A DNA stretch of 24,291 nucleotides, from the IMG/VR virus record IMGVR_UViG_3300008216_002947, positions 1 through 24,291 of that record. The stretch is one strand, 5' to 3'. The notes under the pieces were generated by a model. It ran no database searches and was not told the origin of the DNA. It saw nothing but the letters and a program-made list of their open reading frames with translations. The position numbers and the translations under genes are program-made. The DNA is from a virus. Its lineage: Duplodnaviria > Caudoviricetes. Shown here one piece after another: positions 5,398-24,291 of this stretch (within the stretch, counting starts at the first letter, position 1; every line of letters begins with the position of its first letter).

Positions 5398-8300
5398 TTA
5401 AAACGCCCCTCCCCGCTCTCTTGCTGGGCTCGTGACGGGCGAGTCACCTTCACGCCGGTTGCGGGTTATGCGTGACAGCGCCACCTCGACGAGGTCCTCG
5501 ATTTCGCCCAGGTCGAGAATATCGCCCAGGGAAAGTTTGCCGGTAAAGCGGATTACATCTGACAGAGGCACGTCCACGCGGGTCGCTGAGGTCACATCGA
5601 CCACACTAGCCCAGGAATGCACGCGACTGGCCTGCAAGCGAATGACCTGTGAAGCAAACACAGGAATTTGTTGCGGGCCGTAACCTCGGGCTCGGTCCTG
5701 ACTGCTTGTCCCGCCGAGTGTAACGAGTTGATTCCAGTGAGTGACTCCAAACTGTGCGATTGAAGCGGGGTCGTTGAACTTAAAAACATCGCTCCATGAT
5801 CTGTTGATTTTGCTCTCCAGCTTTTCCACAGCGATTACATCGTGCCAGCCTGTGAACGACCGCGCGCCTTCGACGTCGCCGCCCATCCCATACTTATTAT
5901 CGAGGTGAACGGCTTCCCACCAATCGCGCACGATTCTGTTCCCCGGCGCCAGCTTTTCGACAGCAATTACATCTTTCCACCCTACGAACGACCGCGCGCC
6001 CTCACCTTCACCACCCATGCCGTACTTGTGCCTTAGATGGACAGCTTGCCACCAATCGCGAACGATACGGTTACCCGGTCCAAGATTCTCGGTGTTGATT
6101 ACCTTAGACCAGCCAGCCAATGTGATTGGCGTGAACTTAAAAACATCGCTCCAGGATGTGGATGGCAACTTCGCCAGCCCTGTATATCCAACGTCGCCAG
6201 CGTCAATGATGTCCCCATACCCATTGACCCCAAATTTGCTCCATCCAGCCTTTTTGAACTCAATGGCCCAATTCCACGACTTGGCCGGGAGCTTATCCAG
6301 ATCCTCACCCTGCTCGATAATGTTAGTCCATCCCCCCACCCCAAACTCACTCCAAGGGGAAGCATCGAAGTTAATGGCCCAGGCCCACTGCTTAGTCGGG
6401 AGCTTATCCAGACCCTCACCCTGCTCGATAATATCCGTCCAGCCTCCCACTCTGAATTGGCCCCACGTAGAAGCCTCAAACTCGATGGCCCAGTGCCACT
6501 TCTTCATCGGGAGCTTGGTTAAGCCCTCCCCTTGCTCGATAAGATCACCCCATTCTCCCACCCCAAACTGGCCCCATGACGAGGGAACGATATTGATAAT
6601 GTCGGATGCTGGAACATCTACGGCCGGGATTTCGACCGCCGGCAAGGTAACAGCGGGGGCTCCCCCAGAACCCGGGGGAGGGGCAGGGGCAGCGGTCCCA
6701 TCAGCAGGAGCCCCGGTAGGGGGAGCGGCCCGTAGGGCCCGCAGGGCAGCGGCCTCCTCACTGGCCAGGGCCTTTATTTGTTTCCCCAGTGCAGCGATTA
6801 CCTTGGCCTGCTCGATGGGGTCAGCCCCGGTCTGTGCAAAAGCCCTCTGTGCGTCCCGCCTGAGCGCCATTTCTCGGGCATCATAGGTTATTGCCACGGA
6901 CCGATCCATCGTATTCGCCAGATCACGGGCCGCGTTGTTCATAGAAGAAAAAGCATCCTCGACACTAAGCACGCTAACAATCGCCTCCTGCCACGTCATG
7001 CCGAGATTGAGGAGGTCTGTTTGAAGTTGTTGGGCGTTTGTTCCCATTTGATCTAGCGCAGGCGCAACATCACTGCCCCACTCTGCAGGGTCAGCCCCCC
7101 AGTTCATTTCCACCAGACCGGCGAACCTCATCATTTCCGCCACTGATTTAGCTATGTCGTGCCTTTGGGGGGGGCCCTGTCGATCGTCTTTCTGTGGAAT
7201 GATTGTCTTTTGATCAAACCATTCTTGAATTCCTTCTGTCACCCTCTCAAGGGAGGCCTTATGAGCCTCTGGATCTAATTGTTTGGTTAAGGCTTCGCCT
7301 ATCGGGCGAGCTGCCGCCTCGGCCTGCGCGACGGTGTTGATTGTCCTTTGAAGAGAATCCGCTGCCTTTTGTGCTCCCGCTGCAAAATGATTAACAGCAA
7401 CTGACAATAAATCCGTGGCTAATTGAGCCTTGGTGCCACCTGTTGCAAAATTACCCACAGCCGAAGCCATCGCCCCCAGCTGGCTATTAAATTGTCCGAT
7501 TACCCCGCTTAATGCGGAGTAAAGCCTTTTTTGGTCGGCCAGCTCTTCTCTTTGCTCTGCTATTGCTTTTGTGCGGTCTTTTTCCGCCGCGCGGGCCGAA
7601 ACGGTTTCTCGTTTAAGGGCGGCCTTGATTCGTAAGTCAATGTCAAACTTTTTAAGCTCGGCGACGTGAGTATCTTCCATTATCGCCAGGGCGGTTGTTC
7701 CCGTATCGTTCACCAGCGCCCGCTTAACTTCAAATTTCTGTGCAACAACTATCCCCTCGCGAGTCGTCTTTGTAGACGCCATTTCCTGCCGTTCCAATAG
7801 GGCAAGCTGCTCGGTCAACTCCCCCGTGGAGCCCCTAAGCTCAGAGAGCTTTGTAGTTATCCCTTCAGTGGGTATAAAGGGGGCTTGGGGTTGGTCTATT
7901 GCTGTGCCTTTAGCCCAGTCGATGCCGCGCTGCTGAGGTGCACCCTGGAAGCCGCCCATGAAGCCGCCCTCCCTGCCCCTGGGTAACACAAACCCAGCCT
8001 CTGGGCGTTCGGCGCCGAACCTTGCTCCCTGGATGCCTTCGGGGCCAAAACCTTTCACGGTGATTCCAGACCCGCTTAACCCGCCGCCAATGGTAAGGCC
8101 GCGGGCCGCTCTCTGTTCAAACGTTTCTTCCCTTGCCGGCATGGGGCCCATACCCCGGGCCTCCTTAATAAAATCGTCCCATGCCTTTGTGGCCGCTGCT
8201 AAATTTGCGGCATCAAGGTCGGCTAACCTCTGTTTTTCTTTGGCTACTTTCGCTTCCTCGACAGCGTCATAACTTGCAAGGAAAGCGGCCCGCAATGCGT

Positions 8301-9483
8301 CGAGCGAGGCCGACTCTCCTTTAGCCGCCTGCAATTCAAGCGCCTCCCTTATTATTTGAACGTTTCCCTTTTCAGTGTCCGCCCACATGGGCGCCCCTGA
8401 GAACTGGTCGGGCCCCACGCCCTGGGCCCCTCTTCCCATCCTTTTGTCTTCCCAGTCTTTGAACCCAGCGGCCCACCCTTCCTCCTTTGAGCCTATCTCA
8501 AGAGCTTGGCCAAATCGCGCGAACCCCGACTGCCCCCCGTAACGCCTGCCTCCACCTTTCGGTCCCGAATCCCAGGCAAACCCCTGACCCGCCATCCAGT
8601 CAACCGCCCCCTGGTCCTGCGGGTTCACCAGCAGCTGTGATCCAGGGACTATTTCCTCGGGAGGGGCATGCAGCCCTTTAGCGATTAAGAGCATAGCCGC
8701 GGCGAGTTTTTCGGTCATGCCAATAGCCTTGTCAAACTCAGTGATATAGAGCCCGATGGCGTCCGTCATCACCTTCCACGCCGATTCAACGGTGGCCTCT
8801 ATTTGCCCATATTCGCTCGCAACCACCCCAGCTTGAGATTGCAACGCATCGATAACTTGAACGGCCGTAATCTTCCCCTCAGCGCCCAACTCTCGAAGGG
8901 CGCCGATTGCCACGCCCATACCGTTCGCTATCGCCATGGCAAGCCGGGGGGCCTGTTCAAGGACGCTGTTCAGCTCCTCACCGCGCAGCACGCCCGAGGC
9001 GAGCCCCTGCCCCAGCTGAACGACGGCGGCGTTAGCCGAGTCGCTGCTGCCGCCTGAGATTATGAGGGCTTGGTTAACGGTTTCAATAACGCCCGCCAGC
9101 TCCTGCTGTGAGAGCTTGAGGCTTTTGTTGGCGATAGAGAACTTTTGATATAGTGCCGTCGTCGACTCCATCGAGACGCGGGTGCGCTGCGATATGTCGA
9201 ACAGCATTTTACTGACCGCCGCGGTCTCTCGTGCCGAGGAGGTGAATAGCTTTATGCGGTTTTCGTAGCCCTTCCAGGCGTCTGCGATCTTGACCACCTG
9301 CATCGCCATCGCTGCCCCGGCCGCCGCTGAGAACGCAGCACCGACGGCGCGAAGAAGGGGGGCCATGCGTTTAAGCGTGGAATTGGTGCGATTGAGGTCG
9401 TTATCGAGCTGTTTTGTGCCCCTTTGAACGTCTTTGCCGTCCCATGTGGCAACGACGCGGACGTTGGCGGTTGTGGCTACCAT
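5398..9483 (-). CDS. Tape measure protein (1361 aa)
   Basis: N-terminal tape-measure domain motifs (LFDISQRTRVSMESTTALY; QLGQGLASGVLRGEELNSVLEQAPRLAMAIANGMGV); long Ala-rich helical stretches; follows the frameshifted chaperone pair. Confidence 0.95.
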   Translation of the reverse strand: MVATTANVRVVATWDGKDVQRGTKQLDNDLNRTNSTLKRMAPLLRAVGAAFSAAAGAAMAMQVVKIADAWKGYENRIKLFTSSARETAAVSKMLFDISQRTRVSMESTTALYQKFSIANKSLKLSQQELAGVIETVNQALIISGGSSDSANAAVVQLGQGLASGVLRGEELNSVLEQAPRLAMAIANGMGVAIGALRELGAEGKITAVQVIDALQSQAGVVASEYGQIEATVESAWKVMTDAIGLYITEFDKAIGMTEKLAAAMLLIAKGLHAPPEEIVPGSQLLVNPQDQGAVDWMAGQGFAWDSGPKGGGRRYGGQSGFARFGQALEIGSKEEGWAAGFKDWEDKRMGRGAQGVGPDQFSGAPMWADTEKGNVQIIREALELQAAKGESASLDALRAAFLASYDAVEEAKVAKEKQRLADLDAANLAAATKAWDDFIKEARGMGPMPAREETFEQRAARGLTIGGGLSGSGITVKGFGPEGIQGARFGAERPEAGFVLPRGREGGFMGGFQGAPQQRGIDWAKGTAIDQPQAPFIPTEGITTKLSELRGSTGELTEQLALLERQEMASTKTTREGIVVAQKFEVKRALVNDTGTTALAIMEDTHVAELKKFDIDLRIKAALKRETVSARAAEKDRTKAIAEQREELADQKRLYSALSGVIGQFNSQLGAMASAVGNFATGGTKAQLATDLLSVAVNHFAAGAQKAADSLQRTINTVAQAEAAARPIGEALTKQLDPEAHKASLERVTEGIQEWFDQKTIIPQKDDRQGPPQRHDIAKSVAEMMRFAGLVEMNWGADPAEWGSDVAPALDQMGTNAQQLQTDLLNLGMTWQEAIVSVLSVEDAFSSMNNAARDLANTMDRSVAITYDAREMALRRDAQRAFAQTGADPIEQAKVIAALGKQIKALASEEAAALRALRAAPPTGAPADGTAAPAPPPGSGGAPAVTLPAVEIPAVDVPASDIINIVPSSWGQFGVGEWGDLIEQGEGLTKLPMKKWHWAIEFEASTWGQFRVGGWTDIIEQGEGLDKLPTKQWAWAINFDASPWSEFGVGGWTNIIEQGEDLDKLPAKSWNWAIEFKKAGWSKFGVNGYGDIIDAGDVGYTGLAKLPSTSWSDVFKFTPITLAGWSKVINTENLGPGNRIVRDWWQAVHLRHKYGMGGEGEGARSFVGWKDVIAVEKLAPGNRIVRDWWEAVHLDNKYGMGGDVEGARSFTGWHDVIAVEKLESKINRSWSDVFKFNDPASIAQFGVTHWNQLVTLGGTSSQDRARGYGPQQIPVFASQVIRLQASRVHSWASVVDVTSATRVDVPLSDVIRFTGKLSLGDILDLGEIEDLVEVALSRITRNRREGDSPVTSPARERGGAF
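5775..6582 (-). repeat. Intragenic Trp-rich tandem repeats in the tape measure C-terminus (111-nt and 132-nt periods)
   Basis: About four 37-aa units (SxWGQFGVGxWxDIIEQGEGLDKLPxKxWxWAIEF), about 2.5 44-aa units (GWKDVIAVEKLAPGNRIVRDWWEAVHLxxKYGMGGxxEGARSF), and a 22-nt exact repeat at 5775-5796 and 6132-6153 (WSDVFKF). Confidence 0.92.
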
Positions 9484-15962: not shown

Positions 15963-16253
15963 ATGGCAAAGAAAACCTTCACAGAGGGTGACAGGGTCAT
16001 CGTCACCAATCCTTGGACAGGCGACAAATCCAAGGCAATTGTCGTTGGCATAGATCAGCCTGTGTTCAAGGGTTCCTTCTGCGTCTACGGTGGTGAGTTA
16101 CTTGTACGCTTCGTCACCAGCACAACCGAGGTCGGTGCCATACTGGAGACAGCACGGATCGCAACTGAAGATGTCACGCTTTACGTTCCTTTCTGTGATG
16201 TTGACAAGGATCAGACCATCGAAGACGAGCACATGCGCCAGGGGAGCCTATAA
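15963..16253 (+). CDS. Hypothetical protein, possible SH3/KOW-like barrel (96 aa)
   Basis: Strong RBS and promoter; FTEGDRVIVT...KAIVVGI pattern. Confidence 0.75.
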   Translation: MAKKTFTEGDRVIVTNPWTGDKSKAIVVGIDQPVFKGSFCVYGGELLVRFVTSTTEVGAILETARIATEDVTLYVPFCDVDKDQTIEDEHMRQGSL

Positions 16254-16274
16254 TATAATGAAAGGGAGCCACAC

Positions 16275-16311
16275 CCTGACACCAGTTTTTTTTTAGAAAG
16301 TTGGTGTCAGG
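16275..16311. repeat. 10-bp perfect inverted repeat (terminator-like hairpin or operator) abutting promoter copy 2
   Basis: CCTGACACCA (16275-16284) / TGGTGTCAGG (16302-16311) around a 17-nt spacer containing T9. Confidence 0.75.
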
Positions 16312-16312
16312 C

Positions 16313-16385
16313 TTGACTTAATATGGGTGATTGCCTATATTGAGTTTCAGTGAGAGGGCAATAAAGCCCCCACTAAAAAGAGGAG
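16313..16385 (+). promoter_or_regulatory. Sigma70-type promoter + stem-loop + RBS cassette, copy 2
   Basis: TTGACT-17nt-TATATT; 23 nt identical to copy 1; hairpin AGTGaGaGGGC-AATAAA-GCCCCCACT; then AAAAAGAGGAG. Confidence 0.82.
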
Positions 16386-16392
16386 CAGCAAC

Positions 16393-16644
16393 ATGCCACG
16401 AGGACGCGGATGGCACATGAGCACGAACATCGTAGCGGCCAATATCGCCGGAACCGAGGTTGGTGCCATACTGAAGGCAGAACAGATTGCGAAGCGAGCG
16501 GCGGACATTATTGACGCCGTATACAAAGAGAAGAGGGAGCGGAATGCCCTGGGTCTGGGCGATGAAGCAATTCCCCCCAAGGATGAAGAGGGCAACAGCA
16601 TTGAAGATGTGCTGAACGGCTTGGATGAAGGGGGTGATAAGTAG
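16393..16644 (+). CDS. Hypothetical acidic protein (83 aa)
   Basis: GAGGAG RBS; shares a TEVGAIL segment with the preceding ORF. Confidence 0.75.
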   Translation: MPRGRGWHMSTNIVAANIAGTEVGAILKAEQIAKRAADIIDAVYKEKRERNALGLGDEAIPPKDEEGNSIEDVLNGLDEGGDK

Positions 16645-16648
16645 TTTG

Positions 16649-16903
16649 ATGGGGTTAACCCCCGCTGAGGGCTTCAGGGTGGCGCAGCTACGCTTAGACG
16701 CCGCGTCTGAAGCCCTTGAAGGTGTATCGGCGGAAGCACTTGCCGCCGCTCAAGCTGCCCTTGATGAAGCAAGGGAAAAGATGGAAAAGATGGAAACCCA
16801 GTGCCACCTCTGCGATGGCACTGGGTTTATTCACGAATGGCGACCAGGCAGTGGTGGAATGTGCCGCTGTGGGACTGGCGCCTCTTATTTTGACCCCAGT
16901 TAA
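16649..16903 (+). CDS. Small helical protein with CxxCxGxG zinc-finger motif
   Basis: Likely start is the ATG at 16649, 4 nt after the upstream stop; CHLCDGTG...CRCGTG resembles DnaJ-type Zn-finger repeats. Confidence 0.65.
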   Translation: MGLTPAEGFRVAQLRLDAASEALEGVSAEALAAAQAALDEAREKMEKMETQCHLCDGTGFIHEWRPGSGGMCRCGTGASYFDPS

Positions 16904-16917
16904 AAAGGAGACGGGAA

Positions 16918-17475
16918 ATGCATGCACCGCGGAATAGGATTAAGAGGTTTTTCACAGATACCGTCAATGATGCCCTGCGAAAAGACGAGAACCTTGAATT
17001 TGTAGCCAATGAACTTGAAAAACGTATTGGGACAAGGGCCTTTAAAATGGACCTCGAACCGCTGCCCTTCACGGCAGGCATTTCTCCTGAAGGTATCACC
17101 GGAGATTATATTCGTGAACTGCGCTGCTGTCTCGGTATCACGAAGAAAAAGATGGCTTGGCTTCTAAAGATCAGCCCTGACATTCTGGCCCGGGTCGAAC
17201 GAGGTCAGTATATCCTTGACCCCCGGCCTGCTTTGGAGTGCTGCAAAATCGGCGAAAAGTTCGCCATTGATGGAACTGTTCCACAGATCAAAGAACCGCC
17301 CCGGAAGTTTTCAGGGGGTGGTGAGCCGGTGGGTGGTCGTAAGAGGCGCCGAACCGTTTCAGTGAAAGACGCATTAAAGGAGCCTGGTTTTGCTGCCAGA
17401 GAGTTCGGCATTGGAATGGCAATCGGTGGCGGGATTCTTTTTGGAGTCCTGAGTCTCTTCCTTGCTATCTTCTAA
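16918..17475 (+). CDS. Cro/CI(Xre)-type HTH protein with C-terminal hydrophobic helix (185 aa)
   Basis: GDYIRELRCCLGITKKKMAWLLKISPDILARVERG is an HTH_3-like pattern; the terminal FGIGMAIGGGILFGVLSLFLAIF is TM-like; RBS AAAAAGGAG. Confidence 0.75.
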   Translation: MHAPRNRIKRFFTDTVNDALRKDENLEFVANELEKRIGTRAFKMDLEPLPFTAGISPEGITGDYIRELRCCLGITKKKMAWLLKISPDILARVERGQYILDPRPALECCKIGEKFAIDGTVPQIKEPPRKFSGGGEPVGGRKRRRTVSVKDALKEPGFAAREFGIGMAIGGGILFGVLSLFLAIF

Positions 17476-17968
17476 GGGCGACCTATTTGGCCCGTCCCTT
17501 ATGGAGGCCCGCACCGCACTCTTCTCAGGTCTGGGCGTGAGTAAGAGTGCGGTGCATTGCCCGTGTTGTGACCAGCACGTCCAGCAGTACAGAAGGCGGC
17601 TGTATAAAGGGCTTGCCGAGATGCTTGTGTGGATGTGTCGCACCTACTCACCGGAGACGGGGTGGATAGATGTCCCTCGGCAAGCCCCGCCAGGCATGGT
17701 CAGGGGCGGTGATTACGCCAAGTTGGAATGGTGGGGCCTTATTAAGCACAAGGTCCACGACAATGACCCGGCTCGCAAAGATTCGGGCCTGTGGATACCG
17801 TCAGAGCTTGGGCTGGAGTTTTGCTTCCATACGTGGCGTCGCATTCAGTCCCACGTTTTGATTTACAATAACGAGCTGCGCGGATTCGCCGGGGAACCTA
17901 TTAATATCATTGAAGCCCTCGGCGGTGACGGCTTTCATTATCAGAGGCTAATGGCTGGGGAGTGGTAG
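17462..17968 (+). CDS. Hypothetical phage protein with CPCC motif and probable winged helix (168 aa)
   Basis: HCPCCDQ..YRRRL and YAKLEWWGLI...SGLWIPSELGLEF resemble a wHTH recognition helix and wing. The start is uncertain (TTG 17462 or ATG 17501). It converges on the minus-strand gene with a 1-nt gap. Confidence 0.7.
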   Translation: MLSSKGDLFGPSLMEARTALFSGLGVSKSAVHCPCCDQHVQQYRRRLYKGLAEMLVWMCRTYSPETGWIDVPRQAPPGMVRGGDYAKLEWWGLIKHKVHDNDPARKDSGLWIPSELGLEFCFHTWRRIQSHVLIYNNELRGFAGEPINIIEALGGDGFHYQRLMAGEW

Positions 17969-17969
17969 G

Positions 17970-18323
17970 TCAGGTCAGAACGGCCAAATCCTTCGTCCAT
18001 CGCCGAGCATCGTTGTCCCAGCTTTCCCGTATATGACGCACCACGGCATCGGCACACTGGGCCACGGTCTTATACCTGTCAGTGTCATAGATGGGGCCGC
18101 GGTCCCCCATCTGTGGGGGGAGGGTGTCTGTGACGTGAAACTCCAGGAAGTCACGGGGGATCACTGCTTCACCCTGCATCCGTGCCATAACATCCCGTGC
18201 ATGGCCCCCACTTGCAACCGGGGAAGTGAATGCAACGGTCATGTTTGCCCCATCATCCACCCACACCCCCACCGGCCTATAATGCTCCTGCGGCCCATAC
18301 GTCCATTCAATCATAAACCTCAT
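17970..18323 (-). CDS. Hypothetical protein, candidate immunity/partner protein 2 (117 aa)
   Basis: ATGA overlap with the upstream gene; second small gene after the MuF-effector fusion. The function is inferred from position only. Confidence 0.7.
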   Translation of the reverse strand: MRFMIEWTYGPQEHYRPVGVWVDDGANMTVAFTSPVASGGHARDVMARMQGEAVIPRDFLEFHVTDTLPPQMGDRGPIYDTDRYKTVAQCADAVVRHIRESWDNDARRWTKDLAVLT

Positions 18324-18805
18324 GGGTCCACCGTTTCAGGCAATTCGTCTTCTTCTTCTTCCTCGTTCATCTCCGGTGGAGTCCACCCGGTGGCCATAAA
18401 TTTCCACTCTTCCAGCAGGTAAGCATCCACTCCTGACGTGTCTCCTGCCTTCCTACGCCATGCTTTGATTCTGGCCTGCTCCCTCTCAGTGGCTGGGGTG
18501 AGGCGCCACTGGTGAACGTCGTTGTAACTGGTCATTGTCAGAATATCCCCATCTGTTGACCATTCAGCCCCATGAATCATTTTAACTGAAGCCTCATCCT
18601 CCTCATATCCCAGGTGCTTGCACAGCAGATAAGGCACGACGCCGGTGATTTTCCCATCATGGTCATACAGCGGTTGGACCCTCACGACCACCACCTCAAC
18701 CAATAGCGCATACGGCTCGCCATCCAAGTCAAGGAATACCCCCTGCTTAAACGGCTTAAGAAGGGGCAGAATCACATCCCGGGTCAGCTTCTCCACGTCC
18801 GTCAC
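18320..18805 (-). CDS. Hypothetical acidic protein, candidate immunity protein 1 (161 aa)
   Basis: GTGA overlap with the MuF stop, GAGGAGG RBS, acidic tail EEEEEDELPE. The function is inferred from position only. Confidence 0.75.
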   Translation of the reverse strand: MTDVEKLTRDVILPLLKPFKQGVFLDLDGEPYALLVEVVVVRVQPLYDHDGKITGVVPYLLCKHLGYEEDEASVKMIHGAEWSTDGDILTMTSYNDVHQWRLTPATEREQARIKAWRRKAGDTSGVDAYLLEEWKFMATGWTPPEMNEEEEEDELPETVDP

Positions 18806-21800
18806 TTAACGACCTCCTCGATTGCACGACCATCTGGCAAAACATCCCACCCAGCGTCTTTATATGCTTTTATCACCTCTCGGCGCTCTGTGCTTGTCTT
18901 CGTTAAAATTACGTCAATGTCATCAATAAGGGACATCGACGTCTTAAAATCAGTTTCGTCATCGTCTCTTTTTCTGGCAATAGTGTCCCAATTACTCGGA
19001 GTTGGCTTACGGTTTTTAGTCTGAAAATCATTCCGTGTATCACCCCAAGCGTCGCCTTTATAAATGGCAGCATCCATTCGCCGAAGGTTTTTGCCCTTAA
19101 AGTAGAGCTGCCCCTTTCGCATCCCAGTCTTATGCCGCAGGCGGGTATAAAAGTAAACAGCACCTCCTTTTTGCATATCACCCCCAGGAGACATTCCACT
19201 AACTGGAATGCCGATCCTCATTTTTTCATTCGTCGAGGCCATGACACCGTTGTTCTGTAAATACTTACTGATGGATGCCGCCATGTCACCACCAGTATAT
19301 AAGCTATGCTGCAAGGTAAATCGGTCAGTGTCAGCATCGTCAAGGTCGAATCGATAAAAGGACCTGTAGCCTGCGCTTTTGGTGTAGTCAGGGCCCGGGG
19401 TGGACCTCTTTCCAAAGAAAGACGATTGAAATTCACCAGTGGGGTTGTAGTCTGGTAAATCTTGCAATTCAGTGACCCCTGCCGCCTTCATTTTGTCCTT
19501 GATCTTCTTTTTCTTTGACCAGTGCTTACGCATTGCAGCAATGCGCTCGCTCTGGCTTGCCCCCCTTGTGTTCAGGTCTTCAATCATAGAAATATATGAC
19601 GGCGTAATGTGTTCCTTGGTGCAGTATGCCTGCTTTTTTAAATACATGAGCTCAAAGTCATCCGGGGTGGCAACCTTCGTGTCCAGGCCCATTATTTTGA
19701 TTTTCTCAAGTATTTGATCCATTGTGCCGGCCCCCATGTCACCATTGACTGTCCCCTCAATGATTCCCTGCTGTGCCCTCCATCCGTCGTTATTTCCGTC
19801 ATACGGCCTATATCTGATGCGCGTCCCATCGTCAAATGTTATTTCATATTGGACGGTATCAGTATCGTAAAAGTTATTGTGCATGGAACTCCCACGAGCG
19901 CGGTCGTTATTAACGGTGAGGCCTCCATCGCCCCCCGGCGTCCTTTTCGTAAAATGGATTGTCTCACGGCGGACGGTAAAGCCAGCCGTCGGCGAGGGGG
20001 CTGCTGCTGCGGGCACGCTTCCCGGTGGGGGGTTCTGGCGTAGATAAGGCCCATACATCTTCCCAGAAAGATGCGGTGCTGGGTCCGTGACCCCCTCGGG
20101 GAAGGTTTTAAGGGCTGTTTTGGACAACACCCCTTCATTCACGTCATCCATCACCTTCATATAAGCCTTTGCCATTTTAGCCACTTCGGGGTCAGCATGG
20201 GTTGCCAGAAGGTTTAAGCTCGGCCTTTCAACATTCATGGCATTAAGCGTTGACTCATTAAAGTCAAAATCACCCGACTTGACGTGCATATTAAGGGTTT
20301 TAACTGCGGCCTCAATTTTCGGAAAAAACGTATCTTGGGCCATTGGTGTCCCCACCCTCTCACCCCCCACTGGGGTTGGCAGACCCCCTTCGATGTTTTG
20401 CTTGTTAATCCATTCCATGACCTTCTCACCCCCGGAATGCCTGACCTTAAGGTCGAGGTTGGCCCGGTCATGTCCTACGCCGGCGCTGTCAGTCATATGG
20501 TCGGCGTAATAAACTGCCCGGAGGTCTTCAATGTCTTCCCCATCAAGGTCTATGGCCTTCCCCTGCCACCCATGCTCCTCAGCTTCTTCGGCTACTTCGC
20601 GAAAGGCTTGCGGGAGAACCCCTTCAACGTCCACCGCCGGTGCTGCTTTCTGCCCAAACGTAAAAGTCTCATCCTTCAGGGCCCGCCGGTAATACCCCTC
20701 AAAGTCGGCCCGCAGCGCATTTTTCCGCGCCACGGCCAGATCAATGAATTCCACCCGCTGGGCCCTGGTGCGAAAGCGGTTTTGAGCATATCCTTCGAGC
20801 ATGTCCCGGTACTTAGTTTCAGGGATCGCCTCGAATTGCTCGATTGCCTTTAAGGTGACCACCGGGTCATAAAAATCAAGCTCTATATCCCCATCCCGAA
20901 GCGCCTTCATGGCCGTATTGTAAATCGGCTCAGATTCACCGAATGCACTATTCGGGTGATAATCAAAATCGAGTTTATCGTCACCCAGGAACTTGAATGC
21001 CTGCCCCTTGTCAATGCCGACAATGCGGCCATCTGGGAAAGTGATCAGCTGACCGGGGTGCCCGTCATGGTTGCTGATTAGCCAATCCAGAACATGCTCT
21101 TTCTGAATGGTCTCCAGCTGGGATGGGGTTAGCCCAGTGATCGGCTTATTTCTCAGGTTACCATCAGACCCCTCAATCCACCGCTGAATGCTGCCCCGGC
21201 GGCCATCGGACAGCTCCACAAAGCGAGCCTCAGCTGCAACGGGGTCCACGAGTCGTTGCAGCTTATAGGCAAACTCGTCCACCATCCCCCTATAAGTCGC
21301 TTCCTTTTTCGTTGCGTGGGGAAACGGCTTAAACATCCATTTGTCACCGCTTGGGTCAAGCCAGAATTCCTTAGAATGGGCCCCCCCGATATTGGCAACT
21401 TCTTTGAAGGTGAAGTGGTCGGCTGGATCTATGCCCTCCCATGCCTGGTCCACCTTTTTCCATTCGTCCAAGTGAGCCGTTGGTGAGGGCGGCGGAGCGG
21501 GTGCCTGGACTATAGCCGGGGAGGGCGGCCCCAGCTGGTCCTTGACGGTTTCTGAGGCTTGTTTAGCCTTGGCGCTCGCCTTCCCGACGAGCTTGCCGTC
21601 TTTGTATTTCTGGAGGATTTCGGCGGAATCAACAGGGGTGATCTTCTTCGAGGTGACCAGCTTCTCATATTCGAGGTGGAACGCCATCGCCTCGGGTGAA
21701 ACCAGGGCGGCGGCCTCATCCTCGGCGGCCTTAATCGCTTTCGCAACATCAGACGGCCCCCAGGAAGCCTTGTCAAAGACCGTTTCGTGTATGCCCCCTG

Positions 21801-23904
21801 GGCCCAGGGCGAGGTCTTTGGCTTTCTTCTTCGTCTTCTTCAATGCGGCCGCGGTCAGCTTTCCCTCGCTGATCGAATTAAGAAGGGCGGTATATTCCTC
21901 AATCTTTCCAACATTGGAGCTTGCCTTGCCCACATCAATCGCATCTTTAACTGCCTCGGAGACCCCCACCTTGTCTAATCCGAAGGCCATTGAATCAAGG
22001 TGAACGCCTTCGTCCCCCGCCTTAACGGCTTTTCTAATAAAGCCCTGAACATCAGGATTATTAGGGTCAGAACCCTCAATTTTTAAGATGAGCGCGTCAA
22101 AGTCGGTTTTTTTGCCGATTGCTTGGATCTGCCAGGAGTAGCCAAGGACTTGATCCTCATAAGGCTTCATCTGTAGGTCATTAAAGAGATTTGAGTGAAG
22201 CATTTCACTCCAAGCCGCCTTTGCTTCAGAGTGCACGTCCTCCAATGACTTAATGCCATCTTGAACCTTGGTGTAATCTGCGGCTTCCTGGAACTTGAGA
22301 ATTAGGGGGGTCTGCTTTTCTCCAATGGCTGCTGAAATCCTCTGCTCATATTGCTGCCCCCAGGTTGCCTTTATATTTAGGTCGGGGGACAGGGCTTGAG
22401 CTTCATCAAGAAGGGGCTTCAGCTTCGGATCAAATTCTATCTCTGCATGGACCCCTTGCCCCCATTCCTCCACCTGCTTTTTTGCCGCTGCTGGTATCTT
22501 AAGCTCAATGTCTTGGCTGACAATCTTGAACTTTGCACCGTTGATTCCATCGGTAACCAGCTTTTCCTTGACACCAAACTCATCAGCTGCTGCCACTGCC
22601 TTATACAGTAAAAGGTCTTCATCAAGCAGCTTTTCAAGGGGTTTCAGCGCCTGCTTCGCTTCCCAGATCGCCGGCGCAAGGCTTGCCTTTTCACCCCCTG
22701 GGAGCTTCAAGTCTGAGGCTTTGTGAAACTTAAGGGGGTCAATCTCCGACACCATGCTGAGAGTGCTGTCGATCTTCTGCCCGAGCTTGAGCTTCTTTCT
22801 CAGCGCCTCAAGGGCGGCCTTGGCGGCCGTATCAGCGGCCAGATCCTTCGCAGCAGCGATTGCCGCCTGTTGCAGGGCTTCCTGTGCGGCCTTAGTGGTT
22901 GCCCGGCTAACGGCGGCCTTAGAGGGTTTAAGGGGAACCCCTGTAAGAGTGGTCTTTGCCAGCCCGGCCCCTTGCAGCTGGGCCTCGGGGACATCGTCGA
23001 ACCACTCGGGGCGCCCGGCTATTAAGACGCTGCGACAGAGATGGAACGGACTGAGCCGCGGCGGGCGGCCATATTTGGAATTGTCCCACTGCTCCAGGGA
23101 CATCGCTTTCTGGGTGGAGGCCGATTCACAGATCCTTGTCGAGCGGGAATCCTGGGGGTTGCTGTTCCTAAAAACGGCCTCATCGCCAAGGGTTTCCTCG
23201 GCCAGGGCCTCATGGGTGCGGTTGATTATGCGGGTCGACTCGATGCGGGCAATGGCCTGGGCCCGCTGTCGGATCGAGCGGTGAATGGTCTTCCCGCTCA
23301 TCGACTTAATGGTAAGCGGCTTTATGCGGCCCCCTTGGATTAGCCTCGACTTCAGGCTATCGACGTTCGGGTCGTAGTGATCCACGGGAATTCCTTCAAC
23401 GACCGAGTCGAGCATGGTCTGCCGAAACCACGTCCCGACGTCATCGCCCACCGTGTTCATCACCTGATAACCCTGCTTGAACCCGACGGTTAGAACGCCC
23501 TTTTCGGCGATGGAGATGTTATCGAAGGCGCTTTTAACCAGCTCGGGCGACAGATCGCCGACGTCGAGGTTCACTGAGGCCAAGCGGCGCCCGGCTTTGT
23601 GCATCAGCGGGACAGTCTTTTCCGACCACGCCTTGCCCGGGCCCACGAGCACGCTGTCGATCTGGGGCTTTACAGTGTCACGGTAATAAGCCCCCGCGGC
23701 TTCAAGGTTCGCGGGGATGTTTTGTATCTTCCCATCAGCATCAGTGAGCAGCGCCTGAAACAGCTTCTCCTGCTTCGCCAGCTCGACCTCTGCAGCGCCG
23801 AAAATGCCCTGTAGCTCCACGGCAGCAGCCCCCACGACCTCCTTTTCGAGGGTGTCTCGAAGCTGGTGCATTTCCGCGATCATTGTGGGTATAGTGAGCG
23901 GCAT
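18802..23904 (-). CDS. MuF/SPP1-gp7-like head morphogenesis protein fused to a PI3K/HipA-like kinase and a putative ADP-ribosyltransferase domain (1700 aa)
   Basis: aa 1-300: RAQAIARIES...DSRSTRIC...PPRLSPFHLCRS (MuF). aa 840-970: GGAHS, WMFKP, DEFAYKL, GSIQRWI, LDWLISNHDGHPGQ, IDKGQAF (atypical kinase). aa 1530-1700: QHSL..YLQNNGVMAS, GGAVYFYTR, DETDFK (ART-like). Confidence 0.85.
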   Translation of the reverse strand: MPLTIPTMIAEMHQLRDTLEKEVVGAAAVELQGIFGAAEVELAKQEKLFQALLTDADGKIQNIPANLEAAGAYYRDTVKPQIDSVLVGPGKAWSEKTVPLMHKAGRRLASVNLDVGDLSPELVKSAFDNISIAEKGVLTVGFKQGYQVMNTVGDDVGTWFRQTMLDSVVEGIPVDHYDPNVDSLKSRLIQGGRIKPLTIKSMSGKTIHRSIRQRAQAIARIESTRIINRTHEALAEETLGDEAVFRNSNPQDSRSTRICESASTQKAMSLEQWDNSKYGRPPRLSPFHLCRSVLIAGRPEWFDDVPEAQLQGAGLAKTTLTGVPLKPSKAAVSRATTKAAQEALQQAAIAAAKDLAADTAAKAALEALRKKLKLGQKIDSTLSMVSEIDPLKFHKASDLKLPGGEKASLAPAIWEAKQALKPLEKLLDEDLLLYKAVAAADEFGVKEKLVTDGINGAKFKIVSQDIELKIPAAAKKQVEEWGQGVHAEIEFDPKLKPLLDEAQALSPDLNIKATWGQQYEQRISAAIGEKQTPLILKFQEAADYTKVQDGIKSLEDVHSEAKAAWSEMLHSNLFNDLQMKPYEDQVLGYSWQIQAIGKKTDFDALILKIEGSDPNNPDVQGFIRKAVKAGDEGVHLDSMAFGLDKVGVSEAVKDAIDVGKASSNVGKIEEYTALLNSISEGKLTAAALKKTKKKAKDLALGPGGIHETVFDKASWGPSDVAKAIKAAEDEAAALVSPEAMAFHLEYEKLVTSKKITPVDSAEILQKYKDGKLVGKASAKAKQASETVKDQLGPPSPAIVQAPAPPPSPTAHLDEWKKVDQAWEGIDPADHFTFKEVANIGGAHSKEFWLDPSGDKWMFKPFPHATKKEATYRGMVDEFAYKLQRLVDPVAAEARFVELSDGRRGSIQRWIEGSDGNLRNKPITGLTPSQLETIQKEHVLDWLISNHDGHPGQLITFPDGRIVGIDKGQAFKFLGDDKLDFDYHPNSAFGESEPIYNTAMKALRDGDIELDFYDPVVTLKAIEQFEAIPETKYRDMLEGYAQNRFRTRAQRVEFIDLAVARKNALRADFEGYYRRALKDETFTFGQKAAPAVDVEGVLPQAFREVAEEAEEHGWQGKAIDLDGEDIEDLRAVYYADHMTDSAGVGHDRANLDLKVRHSGGEKVMEWINKQNIEGGLPTPVGGERVGTPMAQDTFFPKIEAAVKTLNMHVKSGDFDFNESTLNAMNVERPSLNLLATHADPEVAKMAKAYMKVMDDVNEGVLSKTALKTFPEGVTDPAPHLSGKMYGPYLRQNPPPGSVPAAAAPSPTAGFTVRRETIHFTKRTPGGDGGLTVNNDRARGSSMHNNFYDTDTVQYEITFDDGTRIRYRPYDGNNDGWRAQQGIIEGTVNGDMGAGTMDQILEKIKIMGLDTKVATPDDFELMYLKKQAYCTKEHITPSYISMIEDLNTRGASQSERIAAMRKHWSKKKKIKDKMKAAGVTELQDLPDYNPTGEFQSSFFGKRSTPGPDYTKSAGYRSFYRFDLDDADTDRFTLQHSLYTGGDMAASISKYLQNNGVMASTNEKMRIGIPVSGMSPGGDMQKGGAVYFYTRLRHKTGMRKGQLYFKGKNLRRMDAAIYKGDAWGDTRNDFQTKNRKPTPSNWDTIARKRDDDETDFKTSMSLIDDIDVILTKTSTERREVIKAYKDAGWDVLPDGRAIEEVVK

Positions 23905-23907
23905 TTA

Positions 23908-24291
23908 TTAATTCTCTGACGGGTCCCTTGGGACCAGTAATTCATCGGGAATGAGTTGATCCATCCTCTGTTGTGGGATTTCTATGTGCAGCGAAGGCAG
24001 TGCTTCGTTCATCACATCGCGGGTCGAATGAAACAGCCGCCCCCCGTTAAGGCGGCGGTAGACGTAGAAGGTCGTTTTCCAGACGCCGATTCTGACAATC
24101 CTTGCGGGGCTGCCCTCTAATATTACAATTTCATCGACGACGTAGGTGCCGCTGCGCAGTACCATAATCGAGGTGACGAACGACTTGATCGTCTCCTTAA
24201 AAACGATTATCCCGACAAAAAGGCAGACCAGCCACCAAAATTCGCCGAGAATCACCATCACCTCCTCGGCCAGCGGGGAGGTGATTTTATC
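23908..24291 (-). CDS. MscS-like small membrane protein (TM helix + beta domain); N-terminus may lie outside the window
   Basis: FKETIKSFVTSIMVLRSGTYVVDEIVILEGSPARIVRIGVWKTTF parallels the MscS TM3/beta-domain consensus. The frame stays open from the track's GTG (24261) to the window edge. Confidence 0.65.
   Translation of the reverse strand, partial: DKITSPLAEEVMVILGEFWWLVCLFVGIIVFKETIKSFVTSIMVLRSGTYVVDEIVILEGSPARIVRIGVWKTTFYVYRRLNGGRLFHSTRDVMNEALPSLHIEIPQQRMDQLIPDELLVPRDPSEN

Follow-up and report, generated by a model that had tools for sequence, protein, structure and literature searches.

Gene content and setting of the locus

The window analyzed here, meaning the whole stretch of 24,291 nucleotides, is a 24-kb phage fragment that corresponds to a virus record estimated to be 24% complete. 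Its scaffold, major capsid and tape-measure genes all lie on the minus strand, as does the gene of interest. That gene, the domains of its product and the two small genes next to it are as follows.

18802..23904, minus strand: 1700-aa polyvalent MuF-type head-region protein, with a divergent MuF domain, a low-conservation linker, a kinase-fold domain, unassigned domains and a probable DarT-like ADP-ribosyltransferase (ART) fold
22993..23355, minus strand: aa ~184-304, a probable MuF domain (head morphogenesis) of divergent sequence, from PHROG 4728 and HHalign
20650..21429, minus strand: atypical kinase-fold domain, aa 826-1085, from family search, conservation, model and fold matches
19345..20622, minus strand: conserved middle region, aa ~1095-1520, about 425 residues, well predicted
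18805..19335, minus strand: C-terminal domain with a probable DarT-like ART fold, aa ~1524-1700, from VIA-align and conserved H1533, Y1584 and E1650
18320..18805, minus strand: dn1, 161 aa, conserved behind homologues of the window's subclade, candidate immunity protein
17970..18323, minus strand: dn2, 117 aa, conserved behind homologues of the window's subclade, candidate immunity protein

On a near-identical longer contig (L008), the order is small terminase, large terminase, portal, a 133-aa gene and then the 1700-aa gene; in the window, scaffold and capsid genes identified by PHROG matches lie downstream. The gene has two traits of MuF polyvalent proteins and polymorphic toxins: it sits in the packaging module past the portal, and its C-terminal enzyme domains are followed by small ORFs. 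Published proteins of this kind (PMC5576092, PMC5512222; Bxa and Apk2 in PMC11699363) are described with a MuF-type N-terminus, which is probable in the window protein, and, as here, with a gene past the portal, C-terminal enzymes including ARTs, and small genes directly downstream. The earlier note had placed a kinase inside a structural protein. The head-region location is borne out, but the word ‘structural’ understates what appears to be a multi-enzyme cargo of the MuF type.

The MuF assignment of aa ~184-304 comes from a weak match to PHROG 4728 (E 0.0022) and from an HHalign comparison with MuF homologues that are themselves Pfam-positive (probability 71.7%, E 3.5e-5); the region has no Pfam match of its own.

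Several neighboring features were also recorded. The 133-aa gene between the portal and MuF genes (23908-24291, minus strand, in the window; L008:5124-5525) has an N-terminal hydrophobic stretch and no family match, and among the loci compared it is present only in near-identical copies of the same phage. Four small plus-strand genes (15963-17968), one HTH_31-like and one matching PHROG 2693, separate the MuF cassette from the scaffold gene and oppose the direction of the structural operon. The tape-measure protein (5398-9483, minus strand) has a degenerate Trp-rich repeat run in its C-terminal part (aa ~975-1250).

Motifs and active-site residues of the kinase domain

Relatives were collected with phmmer against 1.84 billion representatives, which returned 1,401 proteins at E<=0.001, each standing for a cluster at 50% identity. 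The nearest 150 were analyzed; 52 of them have two copies of the domain, giving 202 copies in all. The counts below refer to these copies.

21382..21387, minus strand: glycine loop G840-G841 (G841 in 189/202)
21328..21330, minus strand: K859, predicted ATP-binding lysine (195/202)
21277..21279, minus strand: D876, likely helix-C acid (acid at 876 or 967, never both, in 198/201)
21049..21066, minus strand: catalytic loop D947-G-H-P-G-Q952 (D947 in 199/202; position 952 Asn in 102, Gln in 93, other in 7)
21001..21012, minus strand: D965-K-G-Q968, DFG-equivalent with the family motif D-K-x-Q (D in 199, K in 197 and Q in 194 of 202)

The kinase region had been delimited from the letters as 20670-21430, which equals aa 825-1079, and every motif named there falls at its given residue of the 1700-aa ORF: IGGAHSKEFW at 839-848, WMFKP at 856-860, VDEFAYKL at 875-882, GSIQRWI at 904-910 and DKG at 965-967. 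The roles of K859, D947 and D965 are predicted from the order of the motifs and the secondary structure, and all three, as the predicted beta-3 lysine, catalytic aspartate and metal-binding aspartate, are conserved across the family (195, 199 and 199 of 202, respectively). The pattern D-x-H-x-x-[NQ]...[IVL]D-x-G has a single match in the protein and arises in 0.2% of 5000 shuffled sequences. Family-specific motifs are D-W-x3-N-H-D, D-K-x-Q and H-P-N. Q907, in the last N-lobe strand (model strand E79-84), is Gln in 177 of the 202 copies. In 30 copies, most of which are one half of a tandem, the loop is instead of the protein-kinase type, D-x-K-x-x-N.

One residue assignment has to be revised. 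The helix-C-like glutamate proposed within VDEFAYKL, E877, is Glu in just 96 of 202 copies. D876 is the more likely helix-C acid, judging from the alignment, since an acid is found at either 876 or 967 but never at both in 198 of 201 copies; it is at 876 without one at 967 in 127 copies, and three copies have neither. The variation at 967 distinguishes D-K-G-Q from D-K-E-Q loops. We considered whether the 876/967 swap reflects co-evolution and rejected this: the counts are near perfect, yet they reduce to one clade switch (one independent pair) and are no evidence for it.

Fold and affiliation

The AlphaFold2 model of the domain, built from a 36-row alignment, is a bilobed kinase fold (pLDDT 95.9, pTM 0.93), as the PI3K/PI4K/HipA-like reading of the letters had anticipated. 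When the model was compared by VIA-align with 48,161 chains, all 50 listed matches were kinase-fold proteins. PI4KII-alpha came first (Z 14.6, rmsd 3.7, 227 aligned) and CtkA second (Z 13.8, rmsd 3.5, 205 aligned), followed by MavQ (Z 11.6), actin-fragmin kinase (11.4), Fam20 (11.3) and HipA (10.2). Foldseek matches at E<=0.001 numbered 938, and among those listed CtkA had the best TM-score (0.54). On this predicted structure, PI4KII-alpha, a lipid kinase, and CtkA, a protein kinase, are tied, being less than one Z unit apart.

Sequence searches are less direct. The window’s domain has no Pfam match at E<=10, HipA_C and PF00454 included, and nothing above cut-off in Pfam, NCBIfam or PDB sequences; its best sub-cut-off match, TIGR03843 (E 0.0018), is far below that cut-off. 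It does match PHROG 6577 (E 2e-23), which has no assigned function. An 83-row family profile reached at best VPS34 (E 0.14), Fam20 xylosylkinase (0.91) and PI4KII-alpha (1.7). Among 83 family members, however, HipA_C is found at E<=0.05 in 35 (best 4.6e-9) and PI3_PI4_kinase (PF00454) in 10. The profile comparison proposed in the earlier note turns out positive for HipA_C and PI3_PI4_kinase in part of the family and negative for the window’s own domain; Act-Frag_cataly is absent among the Pfam matches of both. Model, fold matches and family profiles together place the domain within the atypical PI3K/PI4K/HipA/AFK/Fam20 group, where it is claimed by no single named family. HipA toxins have a HipB-type HTH antitoxin gene upstream; there is none here, the 133-aa gene without a family match and the portal gene taking that place.

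The structural neighbors of this fold include PI4KII-alpha, Helicobacter CtkA, Legionella MavQ, actin-fragmin kinase, Fam20 and HipA/HipT (205-234 residues aligned, Z 9.3-14.6). They share the D-x-H-type loop with the window kinase, but identity is 9-17%, and the window kinase has its own motifs, an Asn/Gln toggle and a phage cargo context.

This ranking bears on the substrate. An active kinase might phosphorylate a small molecule, such as a nucleotide, a sugar, a precursor of the cell wall or the head group of a membrane lipid. PI4KII-alpha is the top structural match, with MavQ, a lipid kinase, and the Fam20 xylosylkinase close behind, and the Atlas neighbors of the family include PI3_PI4_kinase and LepB_N clusters. 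Against this, CtkA ties for first place, the protein-kinase-type D-x-K-x-x-N loop occurs in 30 of 202 copies, and, as regards lipids, the family is spread over many bacterial phyla, most of which are not known to make phosphoinositides. The precedent for glutamine in the catalytic loop, POMK, is itself a sugar kinase (PMC5142810), which favors a small-molecule substrate; overall, we regard such a substrate as unlikely.

Asparagine and glutamine alternate at position 952

The residue that first drew attention to this domain is Q952, which stands where the group usually has Asn and had been taken as the mark of an altered enzyme. Whether homologues keep it can now be answered: Gln (93 copies) is about as common as Asn (102), and an amide is present in 195 of 202. 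Among 80 representative loci, 41 have H..N and 31 have H..Q. The sample is the nearest 150 of 1,401 proteins, so the ratio may differ further out. On a FastTree phylogeny built without the loop columns, and with rough support values, there are at least 21 changes between Asn and Gln, and both states occur inside well-supported small clades. The trio K859, D947 and D965 is intact in 91 of the 93 copies with Gln and in 99 of the 102 with Asn. None of the columns among the 202 copies co-varies strongly with Gln952, as might be expected of compensation; the largest divergence was 0.36.

Codons were counted in 315 distinct domain DNAs from the relatives’ loci, in which Gln952 is encoded by CAG in 159 and CAA in 37. 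For pairs of 70-98% identity with unsaturated synonymous sites, the median dN/dS was 0.092 over 75 disjoint Gln-Gln pairs and 0.054 over 29 Asn-Asn pairs, thus somewhat higher in the former; the window’s own nearest pair is saturated. By this measure, the Gln copies are under purifying selection. In addition, POMK is an active kinase whose Gln212, at the place equivalent to Asn171, binds the second metal (PMC5142810).

Taken together, the counts, the repeated switching, the retained Lys/Asp/Asp, the selection and the POMK precedent indicate that position 952 requires an amide and takes either, Gln being one of two interchangeable states of the family. The view of Gln as the sign of an altered enzyme is not upheld, although a small effect on metal geometry may exist. 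The accompanying judgment, that the enzyme is probably active, gains from the residues kept in Gln copies and from the selection on them. POMK (SgK196) is instructive here, as mutation of its own catalytic-loop Gln position (Q214A) lowers activity; it is nonetheless an animal enzyme that phosphorylates a sugar, its catalytic loop exceeds that of PKA by five residues, and its geometry need not carry over (PMC5142810).

These data also bear on whether the domain is a pseudokinase or an ATP-binding scaffold, in which Gln signals loss of the second metal site. The loop does deviate from D-x-H-x-x-N, the helix-C Glu is not fixed (E877 in 96/202), and Asn171 replacements are common among pseudokinases (PMC4718504). 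However, the three catalytic residues persist in nearly all Gln copies, position 952 is limited to amides with repeated switching, selection is purifying, and POMK is active with Gln (PMC5142810). We therefore consider a dead enzyme most improbable, and an active Mg-ATP kinase very probable on the strength of the conserved residues.

The probable C-terminal ART and the middle region

The middle region (aa ~1095-1520) gave no informative fold match in Foldseek or VIA-align when searched within a larger model. It also occurs in a split Streptomyces plasmid gene.

For the C-terminal domain, within a 615-residue model, the top four VIA-align matches are all DarT (Z 7.7-8.4, rmsd 3.4-3.7, 143-152 residues), and Foldseek matches are weak. 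No Pfam or NCBIfam match lies above cut-off, and the ART family appears to be unannotated. We assign a DarT-like ART fold with moderate confidence, based on the model. No DarG-like gene was recognized near the ART in the window.

Partners and spread of the family

A MuF domain was detected in 42 to 46 of the 150 nearest matches, the lower count being from an HMM that excludes the window’s own clade; most have no detectable MuF. An ART is on the same chain in 106 of the 150 (80 DarT-like, 26 VIP2-type), as counted with two HMMs that were both built from members of this same set. Of the 44 without, seven are under 500 aa and two, P0066 and P0132, have DRAT matches. Many tandem-kinase proteins are without a detected ART. 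Other partners, in 58 proteins scanned, are NUDIX, SLT, topoisomerase IB, HINT and WXG100.

Tandem-kinase proteins (52/150; P0012, P0020, P0005, P0036 and others) usually combine a D-x-K-x-x-N with a D-x-H-x-x-N copy, or a Gln with an Asn copy, which suggests two specificities on one chain. In P0045 (2406 aa), a WXG100-like N-terminus precedes two kinase copies and VIP2-type ART domains; this kinase probably rides a type VII secretion anchor.

The family is found in prophages of many phyla; the best 80 of 147 relatives in genomes include members from Desulfobacterota, Acidobacteriota, Gammaproteobacteria and other groups. It is also present in 12 mycobacteriophage and 28 actinobacterial plasmid records. 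The same kinase domain, at 29-35% identity, is present in mycobacteriophage McProf gp54, in the prophiFS/FV prophages, in Onyinye gp16 and in Phrappuccino gp195; the Gln loop is that of McProf gp54, whereas Onyinye gp16 and Phrappuccino gp195 have Asn. These proteins are annotated as minor capsid/ART fusion, ART or hypothetical, and the ARTs detected in them are VIP2-type, as opposed to the DarT-like one of the window. In the two Streptomyces plasmids examined, the kinase and the ART module are separate adjacent genes. There (L395:6201-11095 and L396:6201-11095) the unfused genes lie behind ParB and DUF4417 genes, and one kinase copy has the Gln loop, the other the Asn loop.

The frequent pairing raises the possibility that kinase and ART act sequentially on one target, such that a phosphate made by the kinase on a nucleic-acid end or protein is then ADP-ribosylated, or that the kinase serves as an on/off switch for the ART. 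The two share a chain in most of the nearest matches and remain adjacent when split. Moreover, the ART-fold matches of the C-terminal domain include Tpt1 (Z 6.2), an enzyme that acts on phosphates. However, the partner ARTs are of two unrelated kinds, plus the DRAT-like domains of P0066 and P0132, which speaks against a common chemistry; no ART was detected in many of the tandem-kinase proteins, and the co-occurrence count is inflated by shared descent. We consider such coupling quite unlikely.

Small genes downstream

Of 80 representative loci, 15 have homologues of dn1 and dn2 behind the kinase gene, and these 15 belong to the subclade that shares the C-terminal module; other clades have different small genes downstream. 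Links between dn1/dn2 and those families are weak, with HHalign probabilities of <=41%. Co-occurrence was tried as a means of matching dn1 or dn2 with the kinase or the ART and was rejected, as both follow one subclade only. In other clades, a family of ~120-140 aa lies directly behind the kinase proteins at 24 representative loci (e.g., L313:7448-7813, L258:7607-8029), mostly behind those with a DarT-like domain. It is weakly dn1-like (HHalign E 0.005) and is a candidate for ART immunity.

Comparison with described kinases

No description of this kinase family was found in the literature searched, although supplements or subscription papers may hold one. The word ‘kinase’ does not occur in the main text of PMC5576092 or PMC11699363, and the accessible portions of PMC3482391, PMC9503650 and bioRxiv 10.1101/2025.01.14.632903 contain no description of it.

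Three reported phage kinases deserve comparison. First, the polyvalent-protein kinase of Iyer et al. 2017 (PMC5512222) is described as having lost the whole C-terminal subdomain and as having an insert between the catalytic His and Asp. The window kinase, in contrast, has five C-lobe helices after DKGQ in the model, and its H946 and D947 are adjacent. A conserved Gln in the last N-lobe strand (Q907 here) is common to both. Compared by text description, the window kinase thus differs in two of three features. Second, the HipA-family kinase of the ‘Gratiaviridae’ (Benler et al. 2021, PMC8008677) likewise lies, in tailed phages, between the genes for portal and major capsid. It is accompanied by an upstream AAA ATPase and a glycosyltransferase, and the text available for that paper has no mention of MuF; it is set apart by description and may share the family. 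Third, the T7 kinase gp0.7/JSS1_004 (PMC13645617) offers a functional model but belongs to a different family (PHROG 2828, against PHROG 6577 for the window) and, as described, has a DPV motif, a shut-off domain and no MuF fusion, unlike the window protein.

Proposed function

The reading we favor, at about even chances, is that the protein is a virion-packed MuF cargo kinase, active, and phosphorylating host proteins early in infection beside the ART. Its parts differ in strength. Packaging in the head and delivery into the host are probable. Given activity, a protein substrate with a role in host takeover or anti-defence is slightly favored.

Mechanistically, K859 and D965 would hold Mg-ATP, D947 would be the catalytic base, and Q952 would replace the usual Asn as amide ligand to the second metal. 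Through the MuF domain, the head would receive a single copy or a few, on the model of SPP1 gp7, a MuF member found in the capsid (PMC5576092). The chain, or fragments of it, would enter the cell with the DNA in the manner of T4 Alt, MuF cargo being a further precedent (PMC5512222). There, the kinase would phosphorylate host proteins, much as the T7 kinase does, weakening defence systems (PMC13645617), and the ART would modify its own target. In the producer cell, dn1 and dn2 might restrain the enzymes, as Bsi and BAH protect the producer from Bxa (PMC11699363), a precedent from MuF toxins only.

It could instead be that the kinase works in the producer cell, either in the lysogen or at a late stage of infection, for superinfection exclusion or for phosphorylation of head proteins at assembly, and is not delivered. 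The late-gene position fits this, such a role has been proposed for the Gratiaviridae HipA-like kinase between portal and capsid genes (PMC8008677), and Bxa acts outside injection (PMC11699363). On the other hand, the kinase is fused to MuF, and the MuF protein gp7 of SPP1 is in the capsid (PMC5576092); the WXG100 anchor and the polyvalent partners NUDIX, SLT, topoisomerase IB and HINT likewise fit a delivered cargo. We consider action confined to the producer very unlikely. Head packaging is not universal in the family, however, since some of its genes are found away from head-gene clusters or on plasmids.

Returning to the favored cargo kinase, a bolder version is that virion-delivered kinases form a fixed two-enzyme unit with an ART, in which a target, perhaps a nucleic-acid end or a defence protein, is first primed by the kinase and afterwards modified by the DarT/Tpt1-like domain. 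This is speculative and improbable, but, if true, the host would be disarmed in the first minutes, before phage gene expression, by a class of phage kinase standing beside T7K.

Significance

MuF cargo proteins are an established kind; the interest here lies in a large family of probable phage cargo kinases, unannotated and often joined to an ART, that is hidden under the labels ‘minor capsid’, ‘ADP-ribosyltransferase’ and ‘hypothetical’. The Gln itself is minor, the lesson being that D-x-H-x-x-Q should not be taken for a dead kinase. Phage kinases have been little studied, and the one from T7 has turned out to act broadly against host defences (PMC13645617). The present family is testable in cultured M. 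smegmatis phages, and a ready-made kinase, if injected, would act ahead of phage transcription.
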